The position numbers and the translations under genes were made by a program. The notes beneath the pieces are model-generated. The model saw only the letters and a program-made list of their open reading frames with translations. It searched no databases and was not told the origin of the DNA. Shown in pieces: positions 7,943-27,732 of a stretch of 33,966 nucleotides of DNA. The stretch is from Gemmatimonadota bacterium (GTDB taxonomy: Bacteria > Gemmatimonadota > Gemmatimonadetes > Palauibacterales > Palauibacteraceae): assembly GCA_036476995.1 (NCBI GenBank), contig JAZGCO010000012.1, forward strand, positions 1 to 33,966, read 5' to 3'. Position 1 is the first letter of the stretch. The number at the start of each line of letters is the position of its first letter.

Positions 7943-8010
7943 GTCTCCAAGTATCGCCGGCCAGGGGCCGGGGTAGGAGAAGAGGTCTCGGTCCTCGCGA
8001 CCGCACGAAG

Positions 8011-8055
8011 CCGGTGTTCCCCGCAAACGGGGCGCCGGCTTCTCGCTGTTCTTGC
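8011..8055 (+). terminator. Candidate intrinsic terminator after the 7400..7942 gene: GC-rich nested hairpin CCGG..CCCCGcaaaCGGGG..CCGG followed by a T-rich tract
   Basis: ccggtgttccccgcaaacggggcgccgg is followed by cttctcgctgttcttg, read from the sequence. Confidence 0.35.
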
Positions 8056-8111
8056 CTGTAGATACGTTCAGCCGTCACCTTGCGTGACCCTTCGGCGTTC
8101 TCACACCTCGG

Positions 8112-8675
8112 ATGACGATGAGCAAGCTGGCTGACGACAAACGCCGCGACTTCGAGCAGGAAGCGCTGGTGCACCTGGACGCCCTGTTCGGCCTGGCTCT
8201 CCGCCTCACCGGCGGTGATGAGCCCCGGGCCCAGGATCTGGTGCAGGACGCCGTTTTGAAGGCGTTCCGTTCGTGGGATAATTTCGAACGGGGCACCAAC
8301 TGCCGGGCCTGGCTGATGACCATTCTCCGCAACACGTTCATCAACGAGTTTCGCAAGCACAAAGCCCGGCCCGTACCGGTCGAGTATGACCTCCTGGCGG
8401 ATCGTCCTTCCTCCGCCGACCTTTTCGTGGCGGATCCCTCGGGGGAACTGTTCGACCGCATGATCGATGGCGACATCGTCCGGGCCGTTCAGGATCTGCC
8501 TGAAGCGTTTCGTATTCCGATCATTCTCTCCGACCTTCAGGGGCTCAGTTACCAGGAGGTCGCCGACCTCATGGACATACCGGTCGGAACCGTGAAATCG
8601 CGCCTTTTTCGGGCCCGAAAGCGGCTGCAGCAGGCTCTGTATGAGTACGGCGTGGAGATGGGGTACGTCCGATGA
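8112..8675 (+). CDS. ECF-type RNA polymerase sigma factor (sigma-70 family, group 4)
   Basis: 187 aa with a sigma-70 region 2 (..DLVQDAVLKAFRSWDNFERGTNCRAWLMTILRNTFINEFRK..) and region 4 (..LSYQEVADLMDIPVGTVKSRLFRARKRLQ..). Confidence 0.85.
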   Translation: MTMSKLADDKRRDFEQEALVHLDALFGLALRLTGGDEPRAQDLVQDAVLKAFRSWDNFERGTNCRAWLMTILRNTFINEFRKHKARPVPVEYDLLADRPSSADLFVADPSGELFDRMIDGDIVRAVQDLPEAFRIPIILSDLQGLSYQEVADLMDIPVGTVKSRLFRARKRLQQALYEYGVEMGYVR

Positions 8676-8968
8676 GACCCTGGCCCTGGCGCCGACGAGG
8701 CTCCCGGGCCCAGACCGGCCCGGTGCCGGACGCGTTCAGCTGCGCTGAATGCCTCGAAGTCCTGTACGAATTTCTGGACGGAGAGTTGGATTCGGCCGAG
8801 CGGCCCCGCGTCAAGGCGCATCTCGACAGCTGTGCAGAGTGCTTCAGGCACCTCAATTTTGAGCAGCGCTTCCTGGATCAACTCCGGTCAGCCGCGGCCC
8901 ACGACGACGTCCGAAGCGAAGGCCTGCGGCTTCGCCTCCTGGAGCTACTGGAGCGCGAGGCGTTCTGA
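8672..8968 (+). CDS. Zinc-binding anti-sigma factor (ZAS family, RsrA/ChrR-like), cytoplasmic
   Basis: The ATGA junction overlaps the sigma-factor stop. It contains the H-x3-C-x2-C ZAS motif (HLDSCAEC) and an upstream C-x2-C (CAEC). It has no TM segment. 98 aa. Confidence 0.7.
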   Translation: MRPWPWRRRGSRAQTGPVPDAFSCAECLEVLYEFLDGELDSAERPRVKAHLDSCAECFRHLNFEQRFLDQLRSAAAHDDVRSEGLRLRLLELLEREAF

Positions 8969-9007
8969 ATCGAGAGGTCCTGACATGAAAGGAAACCAGG
9001 ACAACGT

Positions 9008-10078
9008 ATGGAACCAGAACTACGTGAATCTCTAGTCAAACTGCTTGACGCCAAGGGGCCGTCGGGGTTCGAAACGGCCGCTTCCGCGGTGTGGCGGGAC
9101 ATTGCGGGCGGTTTCGCGGCTGACATTTGGGGTGACGTGCACGGAAACAGCTTCGCGTCCATCAACGCCGAGGGAGCGCCGACCGTCATGCTGGCCGGTC
9201 ACATCGACGAAATCGGCCTGATGATCCACCACATCGACGATGACGGCTTTCTCTACGTTAGCGGGGTTGGGGGCTGGGATCCGCAGGTCCTGGTAGGCCA
9301 GCGGGTGGAGATCCTCGTGGACGATTCGACCGTAGACGGGGTGGTGGGCCGTCGGGCCGTACATCTGCTGGAGCGCGAGGAGATAGGAAAGGCGGTCAAG
9401 CTGAAGGAGTTGTGGATCGACATCGGGGCCGAGGACGGAGAGCAGGCCCGGTCCCGAGTCACGATCGGAGATGTGGCCGTCGTGCGCTCGGACACCCTCG
9501 AACTGTCCGGTGGCACAGTGGCCGCCCGTTCGGTGGACGACCGCGCGGGCGCTGTCGTGGCGCTGGAGGCTCTCAGACGAGCCAAAGAGGCGGGCTGCAC
9601 GGCGCGGGTCATTGCCGCCGCGACCGTACAGGAGGAAATCGGATACGCGGCCAGCGGTGGCGCCCGGACGGGCTCATACGGCCTCGATCCACACGTCGGG
9701 ATCGTCATCGACGTCACACACTCCACCGACCATCCGTCGATCGAGAAAAAGGAACATGGCGATGTGCGCCTCGGGGGCGGGCCGGTGCTGGCCCGAGGCG
9801 CGGCAATCAATCCGGTCGTGTACCGCCACCTGCTCGCGGCGGCCGAAGCGGAGGGCATCACCGTGCAGATACAGGCTCTGCCAGCCATGACGGGCACGGA
9901 TGCGGACGCCATCCGCCTCGCCAAATCGGGAGTGGCTACGGCCATCGTATCGATTCCCAATCGTTACATGCATTCTCCGAATCAGATCGTTTCGTACGCT
10001 GACCTCGACCAGTGCGCCAGCCTGATCGCCGCCTTTCTGTGCCGGCTGACGGAGGGCGAGTCTTTCCTCCCGATGTGA
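9008..10078 (+). CDS. M42-family metallo-aminopeptidase (FrvX/YsdC/glutamyl-aminopeptidase-like)
   Basis: 356 aa with ..MLAGHIDEIGLMI.., ..DDRAGAVVALEAL.. and ..ATVQEEIGYAAS.. His/Asp/Glu metal-ligand motifs typical of M42/M20 peptidases. Confidence 0.8.
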   Translation: MEPELRESLVKLLDAKGPSGFETAASAVWRDIAGGFAADIWGDVHGNSFASINAEGAPTVMLAGHIDEIGLMIHHIDDDGFLYVSGVGGWDPQVLVGQRVEILVDDSTVDGVVGRRAVHLLEREEIGKAVKLKELWIDIGAEDGEQARSRVTIGDVAVVRSDTLELSGGTVAARSVDDRAGAVVALEALRRAKEAGCTARVIAAATVQEEIGYAASGGARTGSYGLDPHVGIVIDVTHSTDHPSIEKKEHGDVRLGGGPVLARGAAINPVVYRHLLAAAEAEGITVQIQALPAMTGTDADAIRLAKSGVATAIVSIPNRYMHSPNQIVSYADLDQCASLIAAFLCRLTEGESFLPM

Positions 10079-10088
10079 GCGCGGACTG

Positions 10089-10769
10089 ATGCCAAAGGCC
10101 CTACACAGCCGTGCTGTGGAGGACTACCTCAAGGCGATCTACAAGCTCGGAGGCGACTCGGAGGCGGTGGCTACCTCCGCCCTGGCCGAGGAACTGTCCC
10201 GAACCGCGGCCTCGGTGACCAACATGGTCAAGGGTCTGGCGGACCGCGGGTTGCTCGAGCACACGCCATACCACGGCGCCCGGCTGACCGAAACTGGGCG
10301 CAGCGCCGCGCTACGGATCATCCGCCGCCACCGAATCCTCGAGACCTACCTCATCGAGCGGTTGGGATTTGGCTGGGATACCGTGCACGAGGAGGCCGAA
10401 CGCCTGGAACACGCCGCGTCGGCTGCTCTTATCGAAAGCATGGCGATCGCGCTCGGGAACCCGGACGTGGATCCGCACGGCGCGCCGATCCCCTCCCAGG
10501 AAGGCCGCATCGCGAGCAGACTCCTGGAGTCTCTGGCGGACCTCCCCCCCGGCGCTGGGGCCGTGATCCGAGAGGTGCCGGACGAGGACCCCGATCGGTT
10601 GCGACTTCTCTCATCCAAGGGTCTCTTGATCGGCACCCCGGTGGTGGTCGTGAGGGCCGTTCCGGCCGGAAGCTCGGATGAGATTCTCGTGAGTGTGTCC
10701 GGTACAAGTACGGAGGTGGGGGCGGACCTCGCCCGTCTCATTCAGGTGGAGCGAACCATAGAGAAATGA
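10089..10769 (+). CDS. DtxR/IdeR/MntR-family metal-dependent transcriptional regulator with C-terminal FeoA/SH3-like domain
   Basis: The N-terminal wHTH ...EDYLKAIYKLGGDSEAVATSALAEELSRTAASVTNMVKGLADRGLLEH... plus a metal-binding/dimerisation region, a linker and a C-terminal SH3-like domain. Confidence 0.85.
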   Translation: MPKALHSRAVEDYLKAIYKLGGDSEAVATSALAEELSRTAASVTNMVKGLADRGLLEHTPYHGARLTETGRSAALRIIRRHRILETYLIERLGFGWDTVHEEAERLEHAASAALIESMAIALGNPDVDPHGAPIPSQEGRIASRLLESLADLPPGAGAVIREVPDEDPDRLRLLSSKGLLIGTPVVVVRAVPAGSSDEILVSVSGTSTEVGADLARLIQVERTIEK

Positions 10770-11017
10770 CGACTTCGATACGGGCCGACGGCGATACGTG
10801 GACCTTGCGCATGAGTGAGGAAGCCCCACAGGACGGCTACGCCGCAGTCGTGTTTTTCTGCACAACCAACGATCAGCGCCCATACCGGGTGGGCCTGATC
10901 GAACAGGCTCGGGCCCGAACCGATACTGACTTGGAAGCGCTATCGGCGGAGGAAGTGCGGGGACTGTTCGAGTCCTCCGGGTCCATGGCCCGGCCGGGCG
11001 GACAGGGCGGCGGCTGA
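10766..11017 (+). CDS. Hypothetical small protein (83 aa)
   Basis: ATGA overlap with the DtxR stop and GC3-rich codons. No recognisable domain. Confidence 0.4.
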   Translation: MTTSIRADGDTWTLRMSEEAPQDGYAAVVFFCTTNDQRPYRVGLIEQARARTDTDLEALSAEEVRGLFESSGSMARPGGQGGG

Positions 11018-11076
11018 ACAAGGTAGATCTTCATCTCCATTCGACGGCCTCCGACGGTGTTCTCGAGCCGCGTGCG

Positions 11077-11847
11077 GTGGTTCAGGCGGTGGCCAGCGCC
11101 GGCGTAGTGGGTCTGTCTTTGACCGACCACGATACCGTTGAGGGATTAGAAGAAGCCGCCATGGAGTGCGAGCGGCTTGGGATACGGCACGTCGCGGGTT
11201 CGGAGATCAGCGCCAACGAGCCCGGCGTTTCGATTCACCTGCTTGCGTACGGGTTCGATCCTCGGCACGCCGGACTTCTGGCTTTCCTGGCTGGGGTACG
11301 CGAGGCACGGTGGACCCGCGTTCATGAAATGATCAGGCGTCTCAACGGGATCGGGATCCCGATCACGGCGCAAAACGTTCTCGATCAGTCCGGAGCCGGC
11401 TCCGCCACCCGGGCTCATGTGTCGCGGGCCCTCATCGCCGGGGGATGGGTGCGCGACACCCGGGAGGTGTTCAGCCGACACCTCGGGCGCGGCTGTCCCG
11501 GCTTCGTTGAGAAGCCTCCGACTCCCCCGGCCGGAGTGATCCAGCTGGTTCGCGAGGCGGGAGGGGTCACGATGCTCGCCCATCCCGGTGATTCGTACGC
11601 GGAGGCGGACATCGAGCGCTGGGTGGCCGACGGGCTGGACGGTATCGAGATCATGCACTCTCGGAACGGACCCCAGGAACGGGCTATGCTGGAGCGGCTG
11701 GTTGAGCGACACGGGCTGCTGCGGGGTGGTGGATCCGACTGGCACGGGCCAGATTCTGGAGGCGCTCCGCCGGGTACTGAGAACGTACCGGAAGAGTGGC
11801 TGGATGCGGTAGTTGCCAGGTGCGAGAACAGAGATTGCACCCCGTAG
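11077..11847 (+). CDS. PHP-domain phosphoesterase (TrpH/YciV / RNase AM-like); true start probably upstream (see findings)
   Basis: A PHP fold with ..HVAGSEISA.., ..HLLAYG.., ..LAHPG.. and ..GGSDWHG... The first canonical start is the GTG at 11077. The in-frame upstream sequence encodes the expected N-terminal KVDLHLHSTASDG motif. Confidence 0.75.
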   Translation: MVQAVASAGVVGLSLTDHDTVEGLEEAAMECERLGIRHVAGSEISANEPGVSIHLLAYGFDPRHAGLLAFLAGVREARWTRVHEMIRRLNGIGIPITAQNVLDQSGAGSATRAHVSRALIAGGWVRDTREVFSRHLGRGCPGFVEKPPTPPAGVIQLVREAGGVTMLAHPGDSYAEADIERWVADGLDGIEIMHSRNGPQERAMLERLVERHGLLRGGGSDWHGPDSGGAPPGTENVPEEWLDAVVARCENRDCTP

Positions 11848-11880
11848 ATCCGGGGTTAGCGGGATGAGGATAGAAAATCG

Positions 11881-12879
11881 ATGGAAGTAAGTGACCACAA
11901 ACTGATTATCGTCGGCGCCGGCCCAGCGGGCCTGTGCGCGGCGCTCTATGCGGCCCGGTCAGAGATGGACGCAGTGCTGCTCGACCGGGGGCCGGCTGGC
12001 GGACAGCTGCTGCTCACCGACCGGGTGGACGATTATCCAGGCATCAAGACGATCGGCGGGATGGAGCTGGCCGACGCCATGGCGGAGCATGCCGAGTCAT
12101 TCGGCACGGGTCTCACGCGCGGGGATGTCCGGTCGATAGAGCGCGATTCCGAGGGCCGCTTCGTGGTGCAGACGGCGGAAGGCGATACATTTCGTGCTCC
12201 GGCCTTGATCATGACAGCGGGCGGCACGCACAAGCTGCTGGATGTGCCGGGTGAGGCCGAGTACTCGGGCCGCGGCGTTTCGTACTGTGCGATCTGCGAC
12301 GGCGCCTTCTTCAAGGGCGAGACAATCGCCGTCATCGGCGGCGGCGACGCTGCGGTCGAAGAGGGCGAATTCTTGACACGTTATGCAGAAAAGCTCTACG
12401 TAATCCACCGGCGAGACGAATTCAGGGCCCAGAAGATGCTGCAGGAGCATCTCCTGGCGAACCCGAAAGTCGAAGTCATCTGGGACACGGTCGTGGATGA
12501 GATCGTTGGACAACCCACTGGGGTGAGCGGCCTCAAACTGAGAAACCTCAAGACCGACGCAGAATCGGAACTAAACGTGACGGGTGTGTTTATATTCATT
12601 GGGTTTACGCCCAACACCGGTGTGCTGAAAGAACACGTGGATCATGACGAGTCCGGATACATGGTGACGGACTACGATATGCGGACATCGATCCCCGGCT
12701 TATTCGCGGCAGGAGATTTGCGGTCTCAGCTGGTTCGGCAGATCACGACGGCGGTGGGCGATGCCACAACCGCGGTGTTTGCTGCGGATCGGTACCTGAA
12801 GGAGCGGCACGGGTCCCAGAACGAGACCCAGAACGGGTCCGAGAGCGGGTTCCAGAGCATGGTGGAGAGTCAGACATGA
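11881..12879 (+). CDS. trxB: Thioredoxin-disulfide reductase (low-Mr TrxB)
   Basis: 332 aa with the FAD motif IVGAGPAGLCAALYAA, the redox-active SYCAICDGAFF and the NADPH motif IGGGDAAVEEG. Confidence 0.9.
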   Translation: MEVSDHKLIIVGAGPAGLCAALYAARSEMDAVLLDRGPAGGQLLLTDRVDDYPGIKTIGGMELADAMAEHAESFGTGLTRGDVRSIERDSEGRFVVQTAEGDTFRAPALIMTAGGTHKLLDVPGEAEYSGRGVSYCAICDGAFFKGETIAVIGGGDAAVEEGEFLTRYAEKLYVIHRRDEFRAQKMLQEHLLANPKVEVIWDTVVDEIVGQPTGVSGLKLRNLKTDAESELNVTGVFIFIGFTPNTGVLKEHVDHDESGYMVTDYDMRTSIPGLFAAGDLRSQLVRQITTAVGDATTAVFAADRYLKERHGSQNETQNGSESGFQSMVESQT

Positions 12880-13241
12880 GTGATACAGCAGAGGCCCGCA
12901 CCGGCGGAGCCATGATTTCCCTATCCGAGTTGGCCGCGGACCAGGTCCGCGAGTTTTTCGAGGCTGAGAACCTGACAGCTGAGACGGCGGGCCTCAGGGT
13001 CAGCGTACTTCCGGGCGGATGCTCCGGCTTCGAGTATGGCCTGGAAGTAGAGGAAGAGGTTCTGGACGATGATTTCGTGTTGGAATCTCAGGGGCTCAAG
13101 CTCTACGTAGATCCGTTCAGCGCCCAGTATCTGACCGGCGTGGTGATCGACTATCAGAGCAGTTTCCAGGGTTCGGGCTTCACGTTCAACAATCCGAATG
13201 CCACGGGAGCCTGCGGCTGCGGCACCTCCTTTTCGGTCTAG
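12876..13241 (+). CDS. A-type iron-sulfur cluster carrier (IscA/ErpA/HesB family)
   Basis: Conserved Cys in ..LPGGCSGFEY.. and the C-terminal CGCGTSF motif. ATGA coupling to trxB. An alternative internal start, MISLSE, lies at 12912. Confidence 0.8.
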   Translation: MSDTAEARTGGAMISLSELAADQVREFFEAENLTAETAGLRVSVLPGGCSGFEYGLEVEEEVLDDDFVLESQGLKLYVDPFSAQYLTGVVIDYQSSFQGSGFTFNNPNATGACGCGTSFSV

Positions 13242-13914
13242 CCTTTCCGAACTCATCCTGAGCGGAGAAGGCGGGCTCGAGACGGCTTCCCTCTCACTGG
13301 GGGCCTTTCAATCCAACTGCCACCTCGTGCGGCAGCCCGGATCCACTGAGGCCGTGGTCATCGACCCAGGCGCCGAGCCGGACCGCGTGCTGGAGGCGTT
13401 GAGCCGATGGGGAGCGGTTCCCGCCGCGATCCTCCTCACGCACGCTCACCTGGATCACATCGGAGGCGTCGCGGGTGTCTTGGACCGCTATCCGGTTCCG
13501 GTGTATCTACACGACGAAGACCGGCCGTTGTACGACAATGCCGCTCAGCAGGCGCTGATGTTCGGCCTGGAGATGCAGCAACCGCCGCTGCCCGAGCACT
13601 CCCTGGCGCACGGCCAGGAGCTGAATCTTGCGGGCGTCCGGCTGGAGGTGCGTTTCACACCCGGGCACTCGCCGGGACACGTCGTGTTCGTGGGTCCAGG
13701 ATTGGCGTTCGTGGGAGACTGCGTGTTCGCCGGTTCGATCGGCCGCACGGATCTTCCTGGCGGAAACGCCCTCACGCTATTGACCTCGATCCGCGACCAG
13801 ATCCTGAGTCTTTCACCCGAAACGAAACTTCTGACGGGCCACGGACCGGCCACGACGGTGGCTGTCGAGGCGGCCAGTAACCCGTTCCTGCGGGACACGT
13901 CGTGGGCGACCTGA
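13198..13914 (+). CDS. MBL-fold metallo-hydrolase (glyoxalase II / hydroxyacylglutathione hydrolase-like)
   Basis: Contains THAHLDHIGG (the HxHxDH motif), plus downstream His and Asp ligands (..FTPGHSPGH.., ..GDCVFAGSIGRTD..). The first canonical start overlaps the IscA gene by 44 nt, so the true start is uncertain. Confidence 0.75.
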   Translation: MPREPAAAAPPFRSSLSELILSGEGGLETASLSLGAFQSNCHLVRQPGSTEAVVIDPGAEPDRVLEALSRWGAVPAAILLTHAHLDHIGGVAGVLDRYPVPVYLHDEDRPLYDNAAQQALMFGLEMQQPPLPEHSLAHGQELNLAGVRLEVRFTPGHSPGHVVFVGPGLAFVGDCVFAGSIGRTDLPGGNALTLLTSIRDQILSLSPETKLLTGHGPATTVAVEAASNPFLRDTSWAT

Positions 13915-15032
13915 GCCGAGACCAGGCAGAGGACGCGCAGACGGATGCACAGATCGACGCACCGGCCGAGCCCGGCCCGCAGAACCCGCGGCGGCCCACG
14001 GCGGAACAGACCGCGCGTCTGTCTGAACTGCTGCGCGCCGTCGAGGGGACGGACCGCGTGTACGTGCTCACACACGACAACCCCGACCCCGACGGGATCG
14101 CCTCTTCCGCCGCTCTGGCCTACCTCCTCGAGCACGTGGCCGGCAAGCAGACTTCTGTGCTGTTCGGTGGCATCGTAGGCCGGGCCGAGAACCGGGCTCT
14201 GATGGATGAGCTCGGGATCGAGTTCAGCCGGATGGAAACGACCGAACTGGAGCCCTCCGCGCTGGTGGCCCTGGTGGATACACAGCCTAGAAGCGGCAAC
14301 AACTCGCTTCCCGAGGGCCGGATCGCCACGATCGTGATCGACCACCATCCTGAGACGCCGGCCAGCCGGGCGGCCGCCTTCGTGGATATTCGGCCCGAGT
14401 ACGGCGCCTGCTGCTCGATGATGACGGAGTACCTTCGTATCGCGAAGCTCGAGCCGGACCGCCGCCTGGCCACCGCCCTGTTCTACGGGATCCAGACCGA
14501 GACTATGGATTTGGGCCGAGAGGTCTCAGAGGCGGATGTCAGCAGCAGCCTGTTCCTGTACCCGCGCTCCGACCCGGCGGCTACATCGCGAATCCGTCAC
14601 CCCAGCCTTCCGCTGGCACTGTTCCATGCGATTCACTATGGACTCGAGCACGGGTGGCGCCGGGAAGGGGTGGTCTGCATCCCGTTGGGCCGCCTCGCCT
14701 ACCCCGATCTCGGAGCTCAGCTGGCGGACCTGTTCGTGCGCGGCGTTGGCGTGACCTGGTCGGTAGTGGCGGGACGATACGGCGACCAGTTGTTGCTGTC
14801 TCTGCGAACGTTCGAGCCGACGGCGCACGCGGGAGAGTTGGTCCGCGAGGTGGTGGGCGAACGAGGTTCGGCCGGTGGGCACGGAACGATGGCCGGCGCT
14901 AGCCTGGACGTCCGCACGCTTTCGGAGGCCGAGTACGACACCCTGCTGGAATCGCTATTCGACGACCTTTGCACTGTTCTGGGTGCAGAGTCATCAGACA
15001 GCATCCCGCTCATTGGCAAGGACGAAGGATGA
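13902..15032 (+). CDS. DHH/DHHA1-family phosphoesterase (NrnA-like nanoRNase / pAp phosphatase)
   Basis: DHH motifs ..VLTHDNPDPDGIASS.. and ..IVIDHHPE.., and a DHHA1 region ..GGGHGTMAGAS... The GTG start overlaps the MBL gene. Confidence 0.8.
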   Translation: MGDLSRDQAEDAQTDAQIDAPAEPGPQNPRRPTAEQTARLSELLRAVEGTDRVYVLTHDNPDPDGIASSAALAYLLEHVAGKQTSVLFGGIVGRAENRALMDELGIEFSRMETTELEPSALVALVDTQPRSGNNSLPEGRIATIVIDHHPETPASRAAAFVDIRPEYGACCSMMTEYLRIAKLEPDRRLATALFYGIQTETMDLGREVSEADVSSSLFLYPRSDPAATSRIRHPSLPLALFHAIHYGLEHGWRREGVVCIPLGRLAYPDLGAQLADLFVRGVGVTWSVVAGRYGDQLLLSLRTFEPTAHAGELVREVVGERGSAGGHGTMAGASLDVRTLSEAEYDTLLESLFDDLCTVLGAESSDSIPLIGKDEG

Positions 15033-16333
15033 TCCGGATCGGCCTGACCGGGACGATTGGAGCAGGCAAGAGCGCGGTCGGAAGCCTGTTCGAGTCCTGG
15101 GGAGCGACACGGATCGACGTGGACCACCTGGCGCGCGAGGTCGTGGCGCCTGGGACGAAGGCGCTGGGTGAGATCCGAGATGCCTGGGGCGAGGACGTCA
15201 TGGCTGATGACGGGAGCCTGAACCGGGCCGAACTTCGGCGGCGGGTGTTTGCCGATCCGCGTCAGCGCCTGCGGCTAGAAGAGATCGTCCACCCGGCGAT
15301 CGAAGAACTCCGCCAGCGCCGGACCTCCGAGGCCGCTTCGAGCGGGGCTGAAGTGGTGGTGTGTGAGATCCCGTTGCTGTTCGAGAAAGGGCTGATGGCC
15401 GAGTTCGACGCCATAGTGACTGTCGATGCGGCCTCTGCGGTGCGCCGGGCTCGGGTATTGGAGCACCGAGGCGTGGAAGCCGGCGAGTTTGCGGCCATGG
15501 AAGCGGCTCAGTGGACCGGCGAAGCCAAGCAGAAGGGCGCTGATTACGTCCTTCACAACGAGGGCGAGCTGGATTCGCTCGAGTCTCAGGCCCGGAAGGT
15601 GTGGGAGGCGATTCTGCACTCTGCGCGCGAGCAAACACAGCCCCTGCCTGCCTCGCAGGGCACGGCCGGGAACGGCAGACTGTGGGACGTAGACTTGCAC
15701 ATGCACACCAGTCATTCCCATGACTGCCTCGTGTCGCCGCTCGAGGTCGTCAGCCACGCACGGACAGCCGGCCTCCACCGCATCGCGATCACTGATCACG
15801 ACCAGATCGACGGAGCCTTCGAGGCGCGCGATGCGGCTCCGGAGCTGGTGATCGTGGGCGAAGAAGTGTTGACCTCGGAAGGACTCGATCTGATCGGACT
15901 GTTCCTGTCCCGGCACATCGCGCCCGGCCGCCCTTTTCGTACGGTAGCACAAGAGATTCGCGATCAAGGCGGGATCGTATATCTGCCCCATCCGTTCGAT
16001 TCCCGGCGCGGAACCACGGCGCAGTTTCTGGCTGGGGTTATCGATTGCATCGACGCCGTGGAGGGATTCAACGCCCGCATCCACGACTCGTCCAGGAATC
16101 GGCGGGCACAGGCGTGGGCGGAGAAACATGGGCTTCCCGTCGGCGCGGGCAGTGACGCGCACTTGGGCCGCGAGATCGGGCGGGGAAGGGTGCGCGTGCC
16201 GCCATTCACGGGTGCATCCGACTTCCTGGACTCGCTCCTGGAGGGGTGGGTCGAGGGCCGGCCTTCCAGTCATCTGGTTCACGTTGGCTCGACCTGGGCC
16301 AAGTGGCGAAAGCGCTTTGCCAGATCAGCCTAA
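15029..16333 (+). CDS. coaE: Fusion protein: dephospho-CoA kinase (CoaE) N-terminal domain + PHP-domain phosphoesterase C-terminal domain
   Basis: A CoaE P-loop MIRIGLTGTIGAGKS and core (..EEIVHPAIEE.., ..CEIPLLFE..) are followed by a linker. Then comes a PHP domain, DVDLHMHTSHSHD...ITDHD...YLPHPFD...GSDAH, in the same frame. The ATGA junction with the DHH stop places the start at 15029 rather than the track's 14969. Confidence 0.8.
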   Translation: MIRIGLTGTIGAGKSAVGSLFESWGATRIDVDHLAREVVAPGTKALGEIRDAWGEDVMADDGSLNRAELRRRVFADPRQRLRLEEIVHPAIEELRQRRTSEAASSGAEVVVCEIPLLFEKGLMAEFDAIVTVDAASAVRRARVLEHRGVEAGEFAAMEAAQWTGEAKQKGADYVLHNEGELDSLESQARKVWEAILHSAREQTQPLPASQGTAGNGRLWDVDLHMHTSHSHDCLVSPLEVVSHARTAGLHRIAITDHDQIDGAFEARDAAPELVIVGEEVLTSEGLDLIGLFLSRHIAPGRPFRTVAQEIRDQGGIVYLPHPFDSRRGTTAQFLAGVIDCIDAVEGFNARIHDSSRNRRAQAWAEKHGLPVGAGSDAHLGREIGRGRVRVPPFTGASDFLDSLLEGWVEGRPSSHLVHVGSTWAKWRKRFARSA

Positions 16334-16337
16334 TCGC

Positions 16338-16366
16338 TTGACACGGCTAGCGAAGGACAGCTAGCG
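16338..16366 (+). promoter_or_regulatory. Candidate promoter -35 (TTGACA) followed by a tandem GCTAGCG...GCTAGCG repeat upstream of the NSS transporter gene
   Basis: TTGACA at 16338..16343. Two copies of GCTAGCG (palindromic core GCTAGC) lie at 16346..16352 and 16360..16366. AAGGAGG sits 7 nt before the GTG start at 16438. Confidence 0.25.
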
Positions 16367-16437
16367 TTCGGCGCCGCTGGCCCCGTGGTGCGCGGCGCAA
16401 CCGACTGGAACACAGGCGCGAACAAGGAGGTCAGCGG

Positions 16438-17994
16438 GTGACCATCGAGAAACACACCCAGGAGCGTTGGGGATCACGGATTGGCCTGATCCTGGCCATG
16501 GCAGGCAACGCCGTGGGTCTCGGCAACTTCCTCCGCTTTCCAGTTCAGGCCGCCCAAAACGGCGGCGGTACCTTCATGATCCCGTATTTCATCTCCTTCC
16601 TCGTCCTGGGCATTCCGCTCATGTGGATCGAGTGGGGGATCGGCCGCTTCGGGGGAACCCGCGGCCACGGTACGATCCCGGGCATGTTCGACGCCCTCAC
16701 GGACGGGAAGAAGAAGTGGGCCAAGTACGTCGGCGTGCTCGGACTGGTAATGCCGCTGGTCATCTTCATCTACTACACATACATCGTGTCGTGGATGCTC
16801 GGATTCAGCTTCTTCAGCATCACGGGCGGCTATTTCGGACTGGAGAGTGTGGAGGGGATGCGCGGATTCCTGGGCTCCTATCAGGACATCTTCGATTCCA
16901 GCGTGCACGGCCCCGCCATTACGATAGGCTTCTTCCTGGTCACGATCGCGTTTCTCGGCTGGGTGCTTTCGAAGGGCATCAGCGGCGGGATCGAGAAGTT
17001 GGCCCTGATCGGAATGCCGATCTTATTTCTGTTTGCCTTCGTGCTTCTGTGGCGTGTTCTGACGCTCCCCGAGGCGCTTGCAGCACCTGTAGACGGCCTG
17101 AACTTCATCTGGAATCCGGAGTGGAGTAGCCTGAGCGATCCGGGTGTGTGGCTCGCCGCGGCAGGTCAGATGTTCTTTACGCTCTCGCTCGGGGTGGGGT
17201 CTATTCACACCTACGCATCCTATCTGCGAGAAAAGGACGACGTCACGCTGACCGGACTGTCCACCGCAGCCACCAACGAGTTTGCCGAGATTGTCCTTGG
17301 CGGCACCATCGCCATTCCGGCCGCCGTGGTCTTCTTCGGCGTGTCCGGAGCGCAGGAAATAGCGGCCGGTGGAACATTTGATCTGGGTGTGGTCGCGATG
17401 GGCGTCGTGTTCCAGGGCCTCCCGGGGCCTGAATATGGAGCGAGAATCTTTTCTTTCCTGTGGTTCTTCCTGTTATTTATCGCGGGAATTACGTCCTCTG
17501 TGGCCCTGGCGAGTCCGTCGATCGCGTTTCTGCAAGAGGAGTACAACTTCGACCGCAAGAAGTCGGTACGGACGATCATGGCCGTGGCCTTCGTGTTCGG
17601 CGTTATGAACATGGCGTTCTACCGGCACGGCTTCCTCGGTGAGTGGGACTACTGGGTCGGCACCTTCGGGCTGGTGATCTTCGCCGCCGTCGAAATCGTC
17701 CTGTTTTCCTTCATCTTCGGAATCGACCGAGGCTGGGACGAGATGCACAAGAGCGCAGATCTGCAGATACCACGCATCTTCAAGCCGATCATGCACTGGG
17801 TCACGCCGCTATTCCTGTTCGTGCTCCTGCTCTGGTGGGGGATCGACCAGGCGCTTCCGGTGTTGCTGATGGATGGAAAACCGCCGGAGGACATCCCGTA
17901 TCTCTGGCTCAGCCGAGGCATGATGGTGCTGCTGACCGTTGTTGGCCTCGTGCTGATCAAGAAAGCGTGGGCCCGAAAGGCGCCGGTCGCTTGA
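16438..17994 (+). CDS. Sodium-dependent transporter, NSS (neurotransmitter:sodium symporter / LeuT-like) family
   Basis: 518 aa with ~12 TM helices. The NSS TM1 signature is RWGSRIGLILAMAGNAVGLGNFLRFP. A strong SD is present. Confidence 0.9.
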   Translation: MTIEKHTQERWGSRIGLILAMAGNAVGLGNFLRFPVQAAQNGGGTFMIPYFISFLVLGIPLMWIEWGIGRFGGTRGHGTIPGMFDALTDGKKKWAKYVGVLGLVMPLVIFIYYTYIVSWMLGFSFFSITGGYFGLESVEGMRGFLGSYQDIFDSSVHGPAITIGFFLVTIAFLGWVLSKGISGGIEKLALIGMPILFLFAFVLLWRVLTLPEALAAPVDGLNFIWNPEWSSLSDPGVWLAAAGQMFFTLSLGVGSIHTYASYLREKDDVTLTGLSTAATNEFAEIVLGGTIAIPAAVVFFGVSGAQEIAAGGTFDLGVVAMGVVFQGLPGPEYGARIFSFLWFFLLFIAGITSSVALASPSIAFLQEEYNFDRKKSVRTIMAVAFVFGVMNMAFYRHGFLGEWDYWVGTFGLVIFAAVEIVLFSFIFGIDRGWDEMHKSADLQIPRIFKPIMHWVTPLFLFVLLLWWGIDQALPVLLMDGKPPEDIPYLWLSRGMMVLLTVVGLVLIKKAWARKAPVA

Positions 17995-18025
17995 GCGGCC
18001 GGCCTGCCAGGCAGGAGGAGACGAA

Positions 18026-18160
18026 ATGACAGATTTCGCGTTGGGATTCATGCTGGTCAGTATTCTCAGCGTCACAGTGCTGGTCGTGTATTGCTATTAC
18101 CGAATTCTCAAACCGGGTTCGTCCGACACCGAAACGGAGAATGCCGATCCAGGAGCCTGA
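18026..18160 (+). CDS. 44-aa single-pass membrane micro-protein downstream of the NSS transporter (candidate small transporter subunit)
   Basis: AGGAGGAG lies 7 nt upstream of the ATG. The product is MTDFALGFMLVSILSVTVLVVYCYYRILKPGSSDTETENADPGA, one hydrophobic helix plus a charged tail. It overlaps the next gene's start by ~20 nt. Coordinates are +/-1 because my reading near 18000 is off by one relative to the ORF track. Confidence 0.45.
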   Translation: MTDFALGFMLVSILSVTVLVVYCYYRILKPGSSDTETENADPGA

Positions 18161-19145
18161 TCTCCGCCGGCAGGAAGGACTACACCGAATTCGGCTGGAG
18201 CTTCTCGCCAGCCGACATGTTGTTCTCACCACGCATCTGAACGCGGACGGCGACGGCGCCGGAAGCGAGGCAGCGGTCGCGCACTATCTGCGCCGCAACG
18301 GCATCGCTTCTACCATCATCAACCCGACTCCCTTCCCGGAGAGTTTCCGGTTTCTTCTGGGGAAGACCGAGGCCTGGACGCCGGCAGACGATGAAGGTCG
18401 GAGCGCCCTCGGTGACGCCGACAAGGTGCTCATCTTGGACACGGCGGAGCCGGCCAGGATTGGCGCCGTGATGGGGCACCTGGAGGGCAAGCACCTCCTC
18501 GTCCTCGACCACCATCCTCCTGTCGGCCCCGACTTCGGTGATCCTGCGGTGCGCGACGCGCGGGCCTGCGCGACGGGAGAACTCGTCTACGATCTCATAA
18601 CCGCCGATGGCGGTGGCGTGACCGAGCAGGAGGCGGCGGGGATCTACGTGGCGATCGTCACGGACACTGGATCGTTCCGCTTCTCCAACACATCCCCCCG
18701 GGCGCTCGAGATCTGCGCCGAGCTGCTCCGGCAGGGCGTAGACCCGGAGGACATGTTCAGACGCCTGTTTGGCCAGGGAAGCCGGGCGGGACTGGCGATC
18801 CTCCAGCGGGCACTGGCCTCTCTCCAGGTGGACGCGGAGCATCCGATCGCCTGGATTCGTTTGACCCACCAGGATCTCGTCGAGTCCGGCGCCAGTTCCG
18901 AAGACCTAGAGGGTATAGTGGACATTCCGCGGCAACTGGCGGGCATCGAGGTAGCCGTGTTCCTCAGAGAGCTGCCGGACGGAAAGACCAAGGCCTCCCT
19001 GCGCTCGAACGGACAGGTCAGCGTCGCCGCCGTGGCCCGGGACCTGGGCGGGGGCGGGCACGAAAAAGCGGCCGGCGTTCTTCTCTCCTGCGGCCTGGAC
19101 GAGGCCGAGCAGCAGGTGTTGGCTCTCCTGAGAGCCGCTCTTTGA
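18141..19145 (+). CDS. Second DHH/DHHA1-family phosphoesterase (NrnA-like)
   Basis: ..LTTHLNADGDGAGSEAA.., ..LVLDHHPP.. and a DHHA1 region ..GGGGHEKAAG... Confidence 0.8.
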   Translation: MPIQEPDLRRQEGLHRIRLELLASRHVVLTTHLNADGDGAGSEAAVAHYLRRNGIASTIINPTPFPESFRFLLGKTEAWTPADDEGRSALGDADKVLILDTAEPARIGAVMGHLEGKHLLVLDHHPPVGPDFGDPAVRDARACATGELVYDLITADGGGVTEQEAAGIYVAIVTDTGSFRFSNTSPRALEICAELLRQGVDPEDMFRRLFGQGSRAGLAILQRALASLQVDAEHPIAWIRLTHQDLVESGASSEDLEGIVDIPRQLAGIEVAVFLRELPDGKTKASLRSNGQVSVAAVARDLGGGGHEKAAGVLLSCGLDEAEQQVLALLRAAL

Positions 19146-19254
19146 CGACCCCTGTACCCACAGCGGAATCCCTCATAGATTTGTTCGTCCAGCCCGTCCA
19201 CACGCCGCCTCACAGCGGCGCCTGATCCGCATACTCTCGTTTCGCGAGGATGGA

Positions 19255-19653
19255 ATGGACGCACCAGGCCCTGAGCTCGAAACCGACGTCGTGCATAAGC
19301 TGCGCGAACTCGGCCGCGCCGTCTCGCCGATAGAGATTTCCGATCTGTGGATTTTCCCGCCGCTCGCTAATCTGGCATCTTCGACGGAGTTCTTTCTGTT
19401 CACCCGGTTCCTGTCTGCCGACACGCGGCGCCTGTGCTCGGCACGGATCGAAGTGGGGAACGGGCACGCTCAGCCGTCGGTTGAAGAGGTAACGGAATTT
19501 GGTGTCGTCCCGAATAGCCGCCTGGAGCGGCTGATAGAAGGGTTCAAGCGACGCCTCGGAGAAGAGCGCGAGCCCGTGTATTACCAGCTCGATGGCTGTC
19601 CACAGATGTGGGATCGCCTCGTGTCGCTGGAGACTGCGCCGGCCCCAGGGTAG
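19255..19653 (+). CDS. Hypothetical protein (132 aa)
   Basis: Third-position GC is ~70% on the plus strand. The stop lies 10 nt before the TTG start of ccdA. The overlapping minus-strand ORF 19210..19680 is judged to be a shadow ORF. No domain recognised. Confidence 0.35.
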   Translation: MDAPGPELETDVVHKLRELGRAVSPIEISDLWIFPPLANLASSTEFFLFTRFLSADTRRLCSARIEVGNGHAQPSVEEVTEFGVVPNSRLERLIEGFKRRLGEEREPVYYQLDGCPQMWDRLVSLETAPAPG

Positions 19654-19662
19654 GAGAATTGT

Positions 19663-20403
19663 TTGGAAGGCTTCGAACACATCGGCTTTACCGTCGCGCT
19701 GTTAGCCGGGACCCTCTCGTTCCTCTCACCCTGCGTGCTTCCACTCGTCCCATCGTACCTCTCGTTCGTGACTGGTATCGGTGCCGAGGAGCTGGAACGT
19801 GGGGGAGCTGCGGTGCGGCGGACCTCCTTCATCCATTCCATGTTCTTCGTACTGGGTTTCAGCCTGATCTTCATCGCGCTGGGGGCCGGAGCCACTCTGG
19901 TCGGCACGTTCCTGCGGCAAAACGCGATCTGGGTGTCACGAGTCGGCGGTGGGATCGTGATCCTGTTCGGGCTGTACCTTCTCGGGCTTCGGCCCGGGCT
20001 GTTTCTGGCCCGAGAGCGCCGGTTCCATCTTCGGGACAAACCGGTCGGATACCTGGGTACCACGCTAGTCGGAATCACCTTCGGCGCCGGCTGGACTCCG
20101 TGCATAGGCCCCATTCTGGGCGGGATTATGACCCTCGCCGCGAGTACTGGGACCGTGTATCAGGGCGTGTTGCTTCTGACTTTCTATTCGGCAGGTCTGG
20201 CCATCCCGTTCCTGCTCGCTTCGCTGGCCTTCTCCTGGTTTCTCAGTACCTTTTCGCGTTTCAAGCGATTCATCCCGTGGGTCGAGAGAGCCAGCGGCGC
20301 ACTACTGGTTCTGGTCGGAGGCTTGCTTCTTACCGGGCGGTTTACTCAGCTGGCGGTCTGGGCGGCGCGCTTCACGCCCGAGTTCATCTTCGACCGCATC
20401 TGA
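19663..20403 (+). CDS. ccdA: Cytochrome c-type biogenesis / thiol:disulfide interchange membrane protein CcdA (DsbD family)
   Basis: Six TM helices. The two conserved Cys are in LSPCVLPLVP and GWTPCIGPILG. Confidence 0.85.
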   Translation: MEGFEHIGFTVALLAGTLSFLSPCVLPLVPSYLSFVTGIGAEELERGGAAVRRTSFIHSMFFVLGFSLIFIALGAGATLVGTFLRQNAIWVSRVGGGIVILFGLYLLGLRPGLFLARERRFHLRDKPVGYLGTTLVGITFGAGWTPCIGPILGGIMTLAASTGTVYQGVLLLTFYSAGLAIPFLLASLAFSWFLSTFSRFKRFIPWVERASGALLVLVGGLLLTGRFTQLAVWAARFTPEFIFDRI

Positions 20404-20432
20404 GCCGTTCTGCGATTGGGCCGGCAGATTCC

Positions 20433-22190
20433 CTAGACTGGAGCCTGGGCGATTTCCTCGACTAGTAACTGCCGTTCCAGCAGTCGTGCATACACACCAC
20501 GGCGCGCCAGCAGCTGCGCGTGCGTGCCCTCCTCAACGATCTGCCCCTCCTCGAGGACCAGAATCCGATCCGCGCCAGAGACGGCCGATACGCGGTGTGA
20601 GACGATCACCGACGTACGTCCGCGCATGAACCTCCGCAGTCCGCCCAGTATGGCCTCCTCGGTCACCGTATCAACGGCGGACAGCGAGTCGTCCAGGATC
20701 AGCACCGGCGTGTCGCGGTACAGCGCCCGGGCCAGCGTGGCGCGCTGCTTTTGACCTCCGGACAGGTTGATGCCCCGCTCTCCAAGGCGAGTCTTGATCC
20801 CGTCCGGCAGGATATCCAGGGTCTCGACTAGCTGCGCGATTTCAAGAGCCGTCTCGAGCCTCTGTTCCTGGACTGAAAACTCGTTTCCGTTTCGGAGGGT
20901 CAGGTTGCTATCCAGCCGTTCGCTGAACAGAAACGGTTCCTGCGGCACCACGGAGACCGCGTTCCTCAGCGCTTCAAGTCGCAGCTCCCTGACATCCACG
21001 CCGTCGATTCGCACCGAACCTTCCGTGGCGTCATAGAGACGCGGGATAAGCCGAGTCAGCGTTGTCTTACCGCTTGCCGTCGACCCCACGATGGCGACCG
21101 TCTCACCTGGTTCGATGCGGAACGAAATGTGCCGGAGAATCCAGCGTTCCGTTCCGGGATAACGGAATGACACATCGCGGAACTCGATTTCTCCCCGGAA
21201 CCGCTCCAGAACGACCGCCTCAGGGAGATCCACTATCTGCGGCGGCTCGGAAAGCAGCGCATTGATTCGGGCCATCGATGCCGACCCACGCTGGAACAGG
21301 TTGGTGACCCAGCCGAGCGCGATCATGGGCCACATGAGCAATGTCAGGTAGAACCCGAAGGCCACGAACTCACCGAGCGTGATCGCGCCCGCGATCACCT
21401 GCCGTCCACCCACCCACAGAACAATGATCGAAGCCACCCCGCCCAACAGATGCAAAACAGGGAAAAATGCCCCCCATACGCGGGCCAGGGCCATGTTTCG
21501 GCCCAAGTATTCCCGGTTCAGGGTTCCAAACTTGCCCACGTGATCTGATTCCCTGGCGTAGGCTTTCACGATGCGTATGCCGGCCAGGTTCTGCTGCGCG
21601 AAATTCGACAGCTCCGAAAACTGGCTCTGGATGCGCTCAAAGCGCGTGTGAATTCGGCTTCCGAACTGGACCATGGCCACCGGTAGGAGAACCATGGGAA
21701 TCATGGCGAACACCGTGAGGCGCAGGTCTATCCAGACCATCAGGCTCAGCGCCAGAATCGACACTGTGAATGTGTTCACGAGGTACATGATTGCCGGACC
21801 AGCTACCTGCCTGACGGCCAGAATGTCGTTAGTGGACCGGCTCATCAGATCGCCCGTACGCCACCGGTTGTAGAACTCAGGCGACAGCCTCAGCAGATGG
21901 CTGAACACGCTGTTGCGAAGATCCGCCTCGATTCGCCGGCTGATCCCATTCATCAGCTCGCGCATGCCGTACCTGGTCACGCCGGCCAGCAGCGCCACGC
22001 CGACGAGAAGCTGGGCGTACCGGACGATGGCTTCCCGCGTTACTTCCTCCCTCAGTCCATCGATCGCCAGCTTCAGGATGTAGGGTCCGGCGATCGTGAA
22101 GAAATTGCTGATGACCACGAGCAGCAGGCCGAACGCCAGCCCGCGGAGGTAGGGGCGAAAATAGGGACGTAGTGAGAGAAGCTCTTTCAT
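20433..22190 (-). CDS. ABC transporter, fused permease/ATPase exporter (MsbA/multidrug-like type I exporter)
   Basis: An N-terminal six-TM domain. The NBD has Walker A GSTASGKTT, the LSGGQKQR signature and Walker B VLILDD. The start is placed at the internal Met MKELLSLRPYF, because the longer track ORF would overlap the divergent lipoprotein gene. Confidence 0.85.
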   Translation of the reverse strand: MKELLSLRPYFRPYLRGLAFGLLLVVISNFFTIAGPYILKLAIDGLREEVTREAIVRYAQLLVGVALLAGVTRYGMRELMNGISRRIEADLRNSVFSHLLRLSPEFYNRWRTGDLMSRSTNDILAVRQVAGPAIMYLVNTFTVSILALSLMVWIDLRLTVFAMIPMVLLPVAMVQFGSRIHTRFERIQSQFSELSNFAQQNLAGIRIVKAYARESDHVGKFGTLNREYLGRNMALARVWGAFFPVLHLLGGVASIIVLWVGGRQVIAGAITLGEFVAFGFYLTLLMWPMIALGWVTNLFQRGSASMARINALLSEPPQIVDLPEAVVLERFRGEIEFRDVSFRYPGTERWILRHISFRIEPGETVAIVGSTASGKTTLTRLIPRLYDATEGSVRIDGVDVRELRLEALRNAVSVVPQEPFLFSERLDSNLTLRNGNEFSVQEQRLETALEIAQLVETLDILPDGIKTRLGERGINLSGGQKQRATLARALYRDTPVLILDDSLSAVDTVTEEAILGGLRRFMRGRTSVIVSHRVSAVSGADRILVLEEGQIVEEGTHAQLLARRGVYARLLERQLLVEEIAQAPV

Positions 22191-25042: not shown

Positions 25043-26236
25043 GTGGAGCCTACGAGAGTCATCCGGCGTCAAGCTAGGAGCGGCCTAATCGCGCAGCAAA
25101 CCGCGGAGCTGTATGCCGGAATCATGTCCGGCACGTCGCATGACGGAATCGATGTGGCACTGGTGGCCCTGAGGGGCGCCGACGAGCGGCCCGACGCTGC
25201 TGAACTGGTCAGCTTCACCTTCACACCCTATGAGGACGGACTGCGGCGGCGGCTGCGATCCCTGGCGGAGAACGAGGCCGGCGTACCCGAGCTGTGCGCC
25301 GTCAACTTCGAACTGGGGGCCGTCTTCGCCGAAGCCTTGACCAAGGCTCTCGCCGTTGCCGGGGTATCACCCGGCGACATGGTGGCCGCCGGATGCCACG
25401 GCCACACGGTCTGGCACGTCCCGCCCGCTTCCGGAGCCGGCGGAGGATCGACGCTGCAGGTGGGTGAAGCAGCGGTCATTGCTGAGCGGACGGGCCTTGC
25501 CGTCGTGGCGGACTTCCGGGTGCGCGATGTAGCAGCGGGCGGGCACGGGGCGCCTCTCGCCCCGTACTTCGACCACCTGCTCTTCCGCTCCGCAGGCGCG
25601 GGACGGGCGATTCAGAACATCGGCGGCATCGCCAACGTGACGGGCCTCCCGGCTGACCCGAGCGCGCGGCCGATGGCTTTCGACACGGGACCGGGGATGG
25701 CCCTCATCGACGCCGCGGTCGAGATCCTTACCGGCGGAGAGGCCACGTTCGACGCTGGCGGAGAGCTGGCGGCTCGGGGAGCGGTACTCGAAGCCGCCGT
25801 GAGCGAGTGGCTGTCCGACCCGTTCTTCGCGCAGCGTCCCCCGCGCAGTACCGGGCGCGAGCGGTTCGGCTCCGGGCGGGCGCGCGCCTGGCTCGAAGCG
25901 AATGCGGACCATGCGTCCGAGGATCTGGTGGCAACTCTGACCGAAGTTACGGCCCGTTCCGTGGCTCAAAGCTACGAGTGGCTAGAATTCGGTGTGGACG
26001 AGGTGTTCGTCTGCGGCGGCGGGGCACACAACCGCCATCTCATGGCGCGTCTCGGGAGCCTTCTGCCCGTTACGCGGGTCAGCGTGCTCGATGACTTGGG
26101 CTGGCCAGTGGACTGCCGGGAGGCCGCGGCCTTCGCGCTACTGGCCCGCCAACACGTCCTCGGCATCCCGGTGGATCTTGGCTGGGCCACCGGCGCCCCG
26201 GCGCCGAGGCTTCTGGGGAAGATGGTTCCGGCGTGA
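25043..26236 (+). CDS. anmK: Anhydro-N-acetylmuramic acid kinase (AnmK)
   Basis: N-terminal signature GIMSGTSHDGIDVALV (family consensus G.MSGTS.DG.D). The start is uncertain between GTG 25043 and ATG 25124. Confidence 0.8.
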   Translation: MEPTRVIRRQARSGLIAQQTAELYAGIMSGTSHDGIDVALVALRGADERPDAAELVSFTFTPYEDGLRRRLRSLAENEAGVPELCAVNFELGAVFAEALTKALAVAGVSPGDMVAAGCHGHTVWHVPPASGAGGGSTLQVGEAAVIAERTGLAVVADFRVRDVAAGGHGAPLAPYFDHLLFRSAGAGRAIQNIGGIANVTGLPADPSARPMAFDTGPGMALIDAAVEILTGGEATFDAGGELAARGAVLEAAVSEWLSDPFFAQRPPRSTGRERFGSGRARAWLEANADHASEDLVATLTEVTARSVAQSYEWLEFGVDEVFVCGGGAHNRHLMARLGSLLPVTRVSVLDDLGWPVDCREAAAFALLARQHVLGIPVDLGWATGAPAPRLLGKMVPA

Positions 26237-27729: not shown

Positions 27730-27732
27730 TAA

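Follow-up and report, generated by a model that had tools for sequence, protein, structure and literature searches.

A stretch of 33,966 nucleotides from a Gemmatimonadota bacterium (contig JAZGCO010000012.1; referred to in its full length as the window) encodes a dephospho-coenzyme A (dephospho-CoA) kinase, CoaE, fused in frame to a PHP-domain phosphoesterase. The phosphoesterase half is named PHP2 here, a second PHP-domain protein, PHP1, being encoded further upstream in the window. Both halves of the fusion protein look catalytically competent, as predicted from their conserved residues, and the fusion is derived from a translationally coupled gene pair that is conserved across the phylum. 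We propose, with a probability of roughly 0.38, that PHP2 acts as a phosphomonoesterase on the ribose 3'-phosphate in a 3'-phospho-ADP moiety, as found in 3',5'-ADP (pAp) or in CoA. All coordinates given below are those of the window, and features lie on its forward strand unless stated otherwise.

The fusion gene (15029..16333) is a single open reading frame (ORF) of 434 codons plus stop, with its ATG at 15029, its stop codon at 16331-16333 and one frame throughout. The ATG lies inside the TGA of the upstream gene DHH1 (ATGA at 15029-15032), and the N-terminus MIRIGLTG is common to the homologues in an alignment of 30 sequences. Pfam searches recovered CoaE (PF01121, residues 4-181, E = 1.4e-49), PHP (PF02811, residues 222-273) and PHP_C (residues 356-406) in the one protein. 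Thus, the in-frame fusion of CoaE to a PHP domain, which a sequence-only reading of the stretch had put forward, was borne out. Neither a frameshift nor a stop codon separates the domains, and the junction is identical in P0003, an independent sequence from a different contig, which shares 99% identity over 364 residues and aligns without gaps across the junction. A metagenome-assembled genome (MAG) with 88% identity likewise carries the fused CoaE-PHP in a single frame. The best 120 homologues (56-88% identity) all combine CoaE, PHP and PHP_C in one protein of ~430 residues and, where named, are entered as 'dephospho-CoA kinase' of Gemmatimonadota; fused proteins are present in more than 100 Gemmatimonadota sequence clusters. 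The database entries carry the name of the kinase and leave the PHP half unremarked. The sequence-only reading was not aware of any description of such a module, and a literature search for a CoaE-PHP fusion, which also covered TM0559 and PF13263, found no publication on this architecture.

CoaE catalyses the ATP-dependent phosphorylation of the ribose 3'-OH of dephospho-CoA. The N-terminal half of the fusion (residues 1-204, 15029..15640) is, judged by its sequence, a genuine and orthodox dephospho-CoA kinase. It scored 168.6 bits with PF01121 (cut-off 27) and 126.8 bits with the NCBIfam equivalog TIGR00152 (cut-off 65.55), and it matched CoaE sequences of the PDB at 3e-35 to 1e-25, aligning end to end with the solved enzymes. 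The P-loop, GTIGAGKS, occupies residues 8-15 (15050..15073). Its residues G8, G11, G13, K14 and S15, together with the acidic D32 that follows strand beta-2, are invariant (n = 30 sequences).

The two halves are joined by a disordered, non-conserved linker of ~12 residues (residues 204-215, 15638..15673), for which AlphaFold2 gave a predicted local distance difference test score (pLDDT) below 50. Mean pairwise identity falls to 23% in the linker, compared with 59.4% in the CoaE half and 67.6% in the PHP half. For the full-length protein AlphaFold2 returned two confident domains (mean pLDDT 89.8) with a whole-chain predicted template modelling score (pTM) of 0.57, and for the PHP half alone a pLDDT of 92.5 and a pTM of 0.88. 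The low whole-chain pTM means that a fixed packing of the two domains is not predicted.

PHP2 (residues 219-434, 15683..16330) is a short phosphoesterase domain of the PHP + PHP_C type, scoring 53 bits with the PHP_C family PF13263 against a gathering score of 21.3. Metal ligands were mapped following those of RNase AM (PMC9410882) to H224, H226, D232, H257, E279, D287, H321, D376 and H378. These residues are invariant (n = 30), so that the His/Asp ligands, whose possible loss had been raised by the earlier reading, are in place. Further invariant positions of this half are D222, D256, E278, N348, R350 and H418. The ninth ligand position is occupied by D287 instead of His, and by Glu in relatives. 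PHP2 is an independently folding (beta/alpha)7-barrel with a complete trinuclear metal site and is apparently active. Its C-terminus forms a conserved helix bearing the motif VHxGSTWAK. The P-loop, D32 and all PHP ligands being invariant, both halves are intact and under purifying selection.

The sequence-only reading had taken the fused PHP domain to be of the known pAp-phosphatase kind, and this assignment did not hold. PHP2 scored 41.3 bits with the model for 3',5'-nucleoside bisphosphate phosphatase (NF041577, cut-off 400) and 34.1 bits with that for RNase AM (NF047791, cut-off 375), both matches covering only the N-terminal 55 residues, while the CehA/McbA metallohydrolase model NF038032 yielded 65 bits, below its cut-off of 80. 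PHP2 aligns with PHP1 in two blocks only, 14 residues of PHP2 standing opposite a 98-residue insertion in PHP1. In Cv1693 and RNase AM the nucleotide 5'-phosphate and the base are bound in this insertion domain, with three arginines (PMC9410882). The Cv1693/TrpH/RNase AM proteins (YciV; PDB 2yb1, 7ug9, 9etk, 3e0f) have an Arg-bearing insertion of ~100 residues, whereas PHP2 lacks it and carries Asp287 in place of His. With the insertion domain absent and the profile scores far below the cut-offs, a pAp phosphatase of the Cv1693/RNase AM type was ruled out for PHP2. The domain belongs to an uncharacterised short PHP + PHP_C subfamily, whose closest structures are TM0559 (PDB 2anu) and a two-domain PHP protein of Bacteroides (PDB 3e38). 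Both share 19-23% identity with PHP2, have no link to coaE and are structural-genomics entries without an assigned function.

A search with the PHP half among 1.8 billion representatives returned 6543 relatives. The closest ones not linked to coaE (40-49% identity) form two groups, one of standalone proteins of 215-240 residues and one of C-terminal domains of family 4 glycosyltransferases (GT4), plus one protein combining a family 2 glycosyltransferase (GT2) with APH. PHP2 proteins linked to coaE have a signature of their own, comprising a one-residue insertion at EG-x-D287, an H352 that follows the NAR motif and a helix with VHLxSTWAK at the C-terminus, which is absent from the GT4-fused and from most standalone relatives. 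These conserved residues imply that the coaE-linked PHP2 proteins have a distinct substrate.

The GT4-PHP proteins offered a second context in which to view the subfamily. Among the stretches listed from the genome scan described below there were 59 such loci (L029-L087), nearly all from Solirubrobacterales and related Actinomycetota; coming from one order, they count as one evolutionary observation. The gene order is 539-aa protein, PAP2_3, CDP-alcohol phosphatidyltransferase, myo-inositol-1-phosphate synthase, GT4-PHP and UDG (for example L037, 4815-11615), and no CoaE was found within 10 kb of GT4-PHP in these 59 loci. Their PHP domains are of the same PHP + PHP_C subfamily as PHP2, with 41-48% identity and the same ligands; unlike PHP2, they are joined to a GT4 partner, lie in an inositol-lipid cluster and have neither the coaE-linked signature residues nor the C-terminal helix. 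This context suggests that the GT4-fused domain removes an inositol phosphate, that is, a ring-bound secondary-alcohol phosphate, after the transfer step. It is a candidate phosphatidylinositol-phosphate (or GlcNAc-inositol-phosphate) phosphatase.

Species-representative genomes were scanned with two exact peptide patterns, and the 599 stretches listed included 21 Gemmatimonadota loci; being pattern-based, the counts are not true frequencies of fused and split forms. CoaE and PHP2 were encoded by one ORF in 11 of the 21 loci and by two ORFs in different frames in the other 10, among them two complete chromosomes and 'Ca. Kutchimonas denitrificans'. In most of the split loci the coaE stop TGA and the PHP start codon, ATG or GTG, overlap by 4 nt as ATGA or GTGA. 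The fusion is therefore derived from this coupled pair. In neighbor-joining trees one split clade (L022-L028) was sister to a mostly fused clade, and a second split group (L019-L021) was nested in the fused clade, with a fused outgroup present. This branching points to at least two events of fusion or fission, a count that is tentative as the trees carry no support values.

In another Gemmatimonadota lineage CoaE-PHP is part of a DedA/VTT-CoaE-PHP triple fusion of 629 residues, found in at least 70 clusters. An example is P0137 (L005, 10001-11890; relatives P0412-P0478), with nrnA following directly. The architecture implies that CoaE-PHP is tethered to the membrane in that lineage. CoaE-PHP proteins named as Longimicrobiales were also found, and in the phyletic survey as a whole every named example of a fused or coaE-adjacent PHP2 was from Gemmatimonadota. 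Even if the coupling were incidental, it provides a clean record of overlapping genes turning into fusions.

The link extends to a third gene. The arrangement recurred at each of the 21 loci and is thus not a matter of chance. In essentially all of them gene order was the same: M42 peptidase, DtxR, small ORF, PHP1, TrxB, ErpA/IscA, GloB-like metallo-beta-lactamase (MBL), DHH1, CoaE, PHP2, a variable slot that may hold a transporter, NrnA, unknown, DsbD_TM, ABC (on the reverse strand) and GGT. Wherever the transporter slot is empty, nrnA lies within tens of bases of PHP2. On the divergent contig L089 coaE, PHP2 and nrnA follow each other with 4-nt overlaps at both junctions; L005 has lost the upstream block together with DHH1, but VTT-CoaE-PHP and nrnA are still adjacent. 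In these two loci only coaE, PHP2 and nrnA are kept together, and the upstream genes differ.

The proposed function is as follows. CoaE would install the ribose 3'-phosphate on dephospho-CoA, and PHP2, in a metal-dependent reaction, would take the 3'-phosphate off the 3'-phospho-ADP moiety that CoaE makes. Its most likely substrate would be pAp, the alternative being CoA or acyl-CoA, and one-to-one co-translation, or fusion, would tie the level of such a clean-up or opposing activity to that of CoaE. The probability given above is divided between the two, pAp-type substrates taking the somewhat larger part and CoA the smaller. pAp is a by-product of phosphopantetheinyl transfer, and CoaE of Escherichia coli reportedly has a side activity on AMP that yields pAp. 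PHP enzymes of the COG0613 type hydrolyse ribose 3'-phosphates with the same set of ligands, Cv1693 acting on pAp and RNase AM being a second example (PMC9410882). We favour a 3'-phosphate because the nearest PHP enzymes of known activity carry out this chemistry and CoaE installs this very group, because fusion and coupling are classical signatures of a shared pathway, and because the other contexts of the subfamily also suggest hydrolysis of a ring-bound phosphate monoester. The coaE/PHP2 link is tight and conserved, and conservation is higher in the PHP half than in CoaE. The biosynthesis of CoA has been mapped well, but its degradation and the control of its pool in bacteria have not. The phylum-wide coupling gives a clonable candidate for pAp clearance, for CoA dephosphorylation or for a previously unsuspected step, and it offers a first functional handle on the short PHP + PHP_C subfamily, with its thousands of members and the solved but unannotated structures TM0559 and 3e38.

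Several observations weigh against a 3'-phospho-ADP phosphomonoesterase. PHP2 has neither the insertion domain nor the three arginines with which the only characterised PHP-type pAp phosphatases hold the 5'-phosphate of the nucleotide. PHP1 and NrnA, encoded in the same cluster, are better candidates for pAp phosphatases, and a third such enzyme would be redundant. Unless it were regulated, a CoA 3'-phosphatase attached to CoaE would set up a futile cycle that wastes ATP, and the analysis turned up no regulatory element. AlphaFold2 gave no confident CoaE/PHP2 interface, so that substrate channelling is not indicated by the model. The coaE link of PHP2 is confined to one phylum: relatives outside Gemmatimonadota show no coaE within 10 kb, and the standalone relatives P0127, P0131 and P0136 lie in contexts without a common theme and without coaE. 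Substrates at the membrane are hinted at instead by the DedA/VTT fusion and by the surroundings of relatives, which relate to lipids or the envelope. Housekeeping genes with no relation to CoaE (TrxB, ErpA, GloB-like MBL, M42 peptidase and GGT) lie in the conserved block as well, so that synteny over the full 8 kb is a poor guide to function. Finally, the window contains no gene for a phosphopantetheinyl transferase, for another CoA-pathway enzyme or for sulfate assimilation. The module for CoA and 3'-phosphoadenosine-nucleotide homeostasis suggested by the sequence-only reading is consequently upheld in part: the tight and conserved link of coaE, PHP and NrnA-like DHH genes, with its 4-nt overlaps, stands, but it is joined by no other CoA-pathway gene in the window.

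A serious competitor, somewhat less probable than the 3'-phosphate proposal, is that the two proteins share no more than their expression. PHP2 would then act on a phosphoester that has nothing to do with CoA, for example the phosphate of a sugar or cyclitol, a lipid-linked phosphate or a short RNA, and would owe its fusion to coaE solely to its place as an overlapping neighbour in a long operon of housekeeping genes. Gene order from the M42 peptidase through GGT is maintained across the phylum with unrelated genes included, which leaves synteny by itself uninformative; overlapping genes are one frameshift away from fusion, and the linker is unconstrained, with no domain interface predicted. 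The varied partners of the subfamily elsewhere (GT4, GT2+APH, and UbiA/LPG_synthase as neighbours), with no coaE outside Gemmatimonadota, also agree with this explanation. However, the adjacency of coaE and PHP2 outlasts the loss of the upstream block in L005 and L089, the fusion seemingly arose or was lost more than once and has been kept in hundreds of diverged sequences, and the coaE-linked PHP2 proteins are a distinct group with conserved residues of their own.

A further possibility, rather doubtful and already counted within the probability of the 3'-phosphate proposal, is a toggle of kinase and phosphatase, in which PHP2 as a CoA or acyl-CoA 3'-phosphatase would oppose CoaE and set the ratio of CoA to dephospho-CoA. 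PHP2 would act on what its fused partner directly produces and would not duplicate PHP1 or NrnA, and an active site without the insertion domain is presumably more open to a bulky substrate. Phosphotransferase and phosphohydrolase are combined in one polypeptide in PFK-2/FBPase-2, SpoT/Rel and T4 Pnkp. Those proteins have unrelated folds, and reciprocal regulation or action on two ends is established for them; the likeness to CoaE-PHP2 shown here is one of architecture. Against the toggle stand the futile cycle, the absence of any sensor or regulatory domain, and a flexible linker that does not suggest reciprocal control. A dedicated CoA 3'-phosphatase of metazoa, MESH1 (HDDC3), was identified only recently, in 2026, and the authors of that work know of none in bacteria (PMC13221220). 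If PHP2 dephosphorylates CoA, MESH1 would be its functional analogue, although it is metazoan and non-homologous, with an HD-domain fold and no fusion to the kinase. The finding would matter most in this case. In an extended form, to be regarded with equal reserve, PHP2 would be the first dedicated bacterial CoA 3'-phosphatase, bound to CoaE in fixed stoichiometry, and would govern the CoA pool as well as how much dephospho-CoA there is for RNA capping; the nucleotides or capped RNA fragments that result would be handled by the NrnA-like and RNase AM-like enzymes encoded on either side.

Less probable again is a module devoted to RNA, with DHH1, PHP2, NrnA and PHP1 degrading short or dephospho-CoA-capped RNAs and CoaE recycling the dephospho-CoA. 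Members of the NrnA and RNase AM families are 5'-3' nanoRNases, and four phosphoesterases are clustered around coaE. The PHP enzyme RNase AM removes FAD caps (PMC9410882), and dephospho-CoA is a known non-canonical RNA cap (PMC9410882, introduction). These points are entirely circumstantial, however; PHP2 lacks RNase AM's insertion domain, four unrelated genes separate PHP1 from coaE, and no RNA-binding domain is present.

It is very improbable that PHP2 is a non-catalytic C-terminal domain that aids folding or solubility of CoaE. The precedent is mycobacterial CoaE, which requires its C-terminal UPF0157 domain to fold (PMC2765170). This protein (Rv1631, PDB 6n39), the best PDB sequence match of our CoaE half at 3e-35, likewise carries an extra C-terminal domain; there it is UPF0157/GrpB, reported to aid folding (PMC2765170), whereas here it is a PHP domain with an intact active site that is encoded by a separate gene in sister lineages. 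Against a folding aid stand the invariant metal ligands, a PHP half that is more conserved than CoaE, and the separate proteins in 10 of the 21 genomes. Two-domain dephospho-CoA kinases (DPCK) are also found in eukaryotes, as PPAT-DPCK. CoaE-PHP thus stands alongside two-domain architectures that were already known, CoaE-UPF0157 of mycobacteria and PPAT-DPCK. That an assembly or sequencing artefact joined two genes, as the two overlapping genes in different frames of related genomes might lead one to suspect, is refuted by the junction of the 99%-identical P0003, the 88%-identical MAG and the more than 100 other fused clusters.

The sequence-only reading had placed two PHP and two DHH proteins in the neighbourhood, and all four were confirmed; the start it gave for PHP1, 11077, was not, since it cuts off the HxH motif. 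PHP1 (about 11014..11847) is, on sequence grounds, the likely member of the Cv1693/TrpH/RNase AM family in the window, which PHP2 is not. It gave full-length PDB matches (3e0f, 1e-43; 2yb1, 4e-34; 7ug9, 4e-30) and a full-length match to NF041577 of 181.6 bits, below the cut-off of 400, contains the insertion domain and has arginines that align with R107, R110 and R141 of RNase AM. Its metal motif DLHLHS lies upstream of the first ATG, GTG or TTG (11077). In 17 homologous loci an ATG, GTG or TTG was present within ~25 codons upstream of the motif Asp, exactly four codons before it in 9 of the 17. The codon of the window at that position is CTG (11014-11016), which overlaps the TGA of an 83-aa ORF as CTGA. 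Either PHP1 starts at this rare CTG, the probable start, or its start codon is mutated in this MAG.

DHH1 (13902..15032) is a divergent NrnA-like DHH/DHHA1 phosphoesterase. Pfam DHH was matched at 2.9e-14 and DHHA1 below the gathering score, NF053633 gave 27 bits (cut-off 350), and PDB matches were weak; the motifs HDNPDPDG, DHH and GGH are visible in the sequence. At 100% identity its sequence agrees with an entry named 'DHH family phosphoesterase [Gemmatimonadota bacterium]', which, along with a composition of ~64% G+C, places the source among Gemmatimonadota MAGs; its best 120 homologues are, where named, from Gemmatimonadota. The stop codon of DHH1 overlaps the start of coaE by 4 nt in 14 of the 21 loci, and the two are 4-20 nt apart in the others. 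The N-terminal 50 residues of DHH1 are of low complexity and poorly conserved. DHH2 (18141..19145; Pfam DHH and DHHA1), a homologue of nanoRNase/pAp phosphatase, is placed with the NrnA family by its structural-database matches (1e-27 to 1e-28 with NrnA sequences of the PDB), while it gave 94 bits with NF053633, below the cut-off of 350. A tandem duplication as the source of DHH1 and DHH2 was rejected, as they resemble each other at the level of motifs only.

In the window the variable slot between PHP2 and nrnA holds an SNF/NSS-family Na+ symporter (16438..17994, PF00209), as it does in most fused loci. The slot is empty in L005, L010, L012, L015-L017 and L089 and is taken in the split clade by a non-homologous Na+:alanine symporter (PF01235, for example L022, 11340-13091). 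The swap could be an analogous displacement of a small-amino-acid transporter, and a link to beta-alanine or CoA precursors would be pure speculation.

Among the other genes of the block, TrxB scored 362.9 bits (cut-off 343) and ErpA 119 bits (cut-off 117). TrxB and ErpA share 4 nt (ATGA). With the starts as listed, ErpA (12876-13241) and MBL (13198-13914) overlap by 44 nt and MBL and DHH1 by 13 nt; the true starts of MBL and DHH1 may be further downstream. An Rfam scan of the whole window found no RNA family, and promoter and terminator scans of 8000-20500 gave nothing above shuffled expectation. As these last scans were uninformative, operon limits rest on spacing and overlaps. The small ORFs at 19255-19653 (132 aa) and 10766-11017 (83 aa) had no Pfam or NCBIfam match and are conserved in position and sequence across Gemmatimonadota loci. 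Further downstream, at 25043-31433, co-directional and overlapping genes encode AnmK, a NagZ-like GH3 enzyme, a sodium:solute symporter and a protein whose C-terminal domain is Amidase_3, in what looks like a peptidoglycan-recycling operon.

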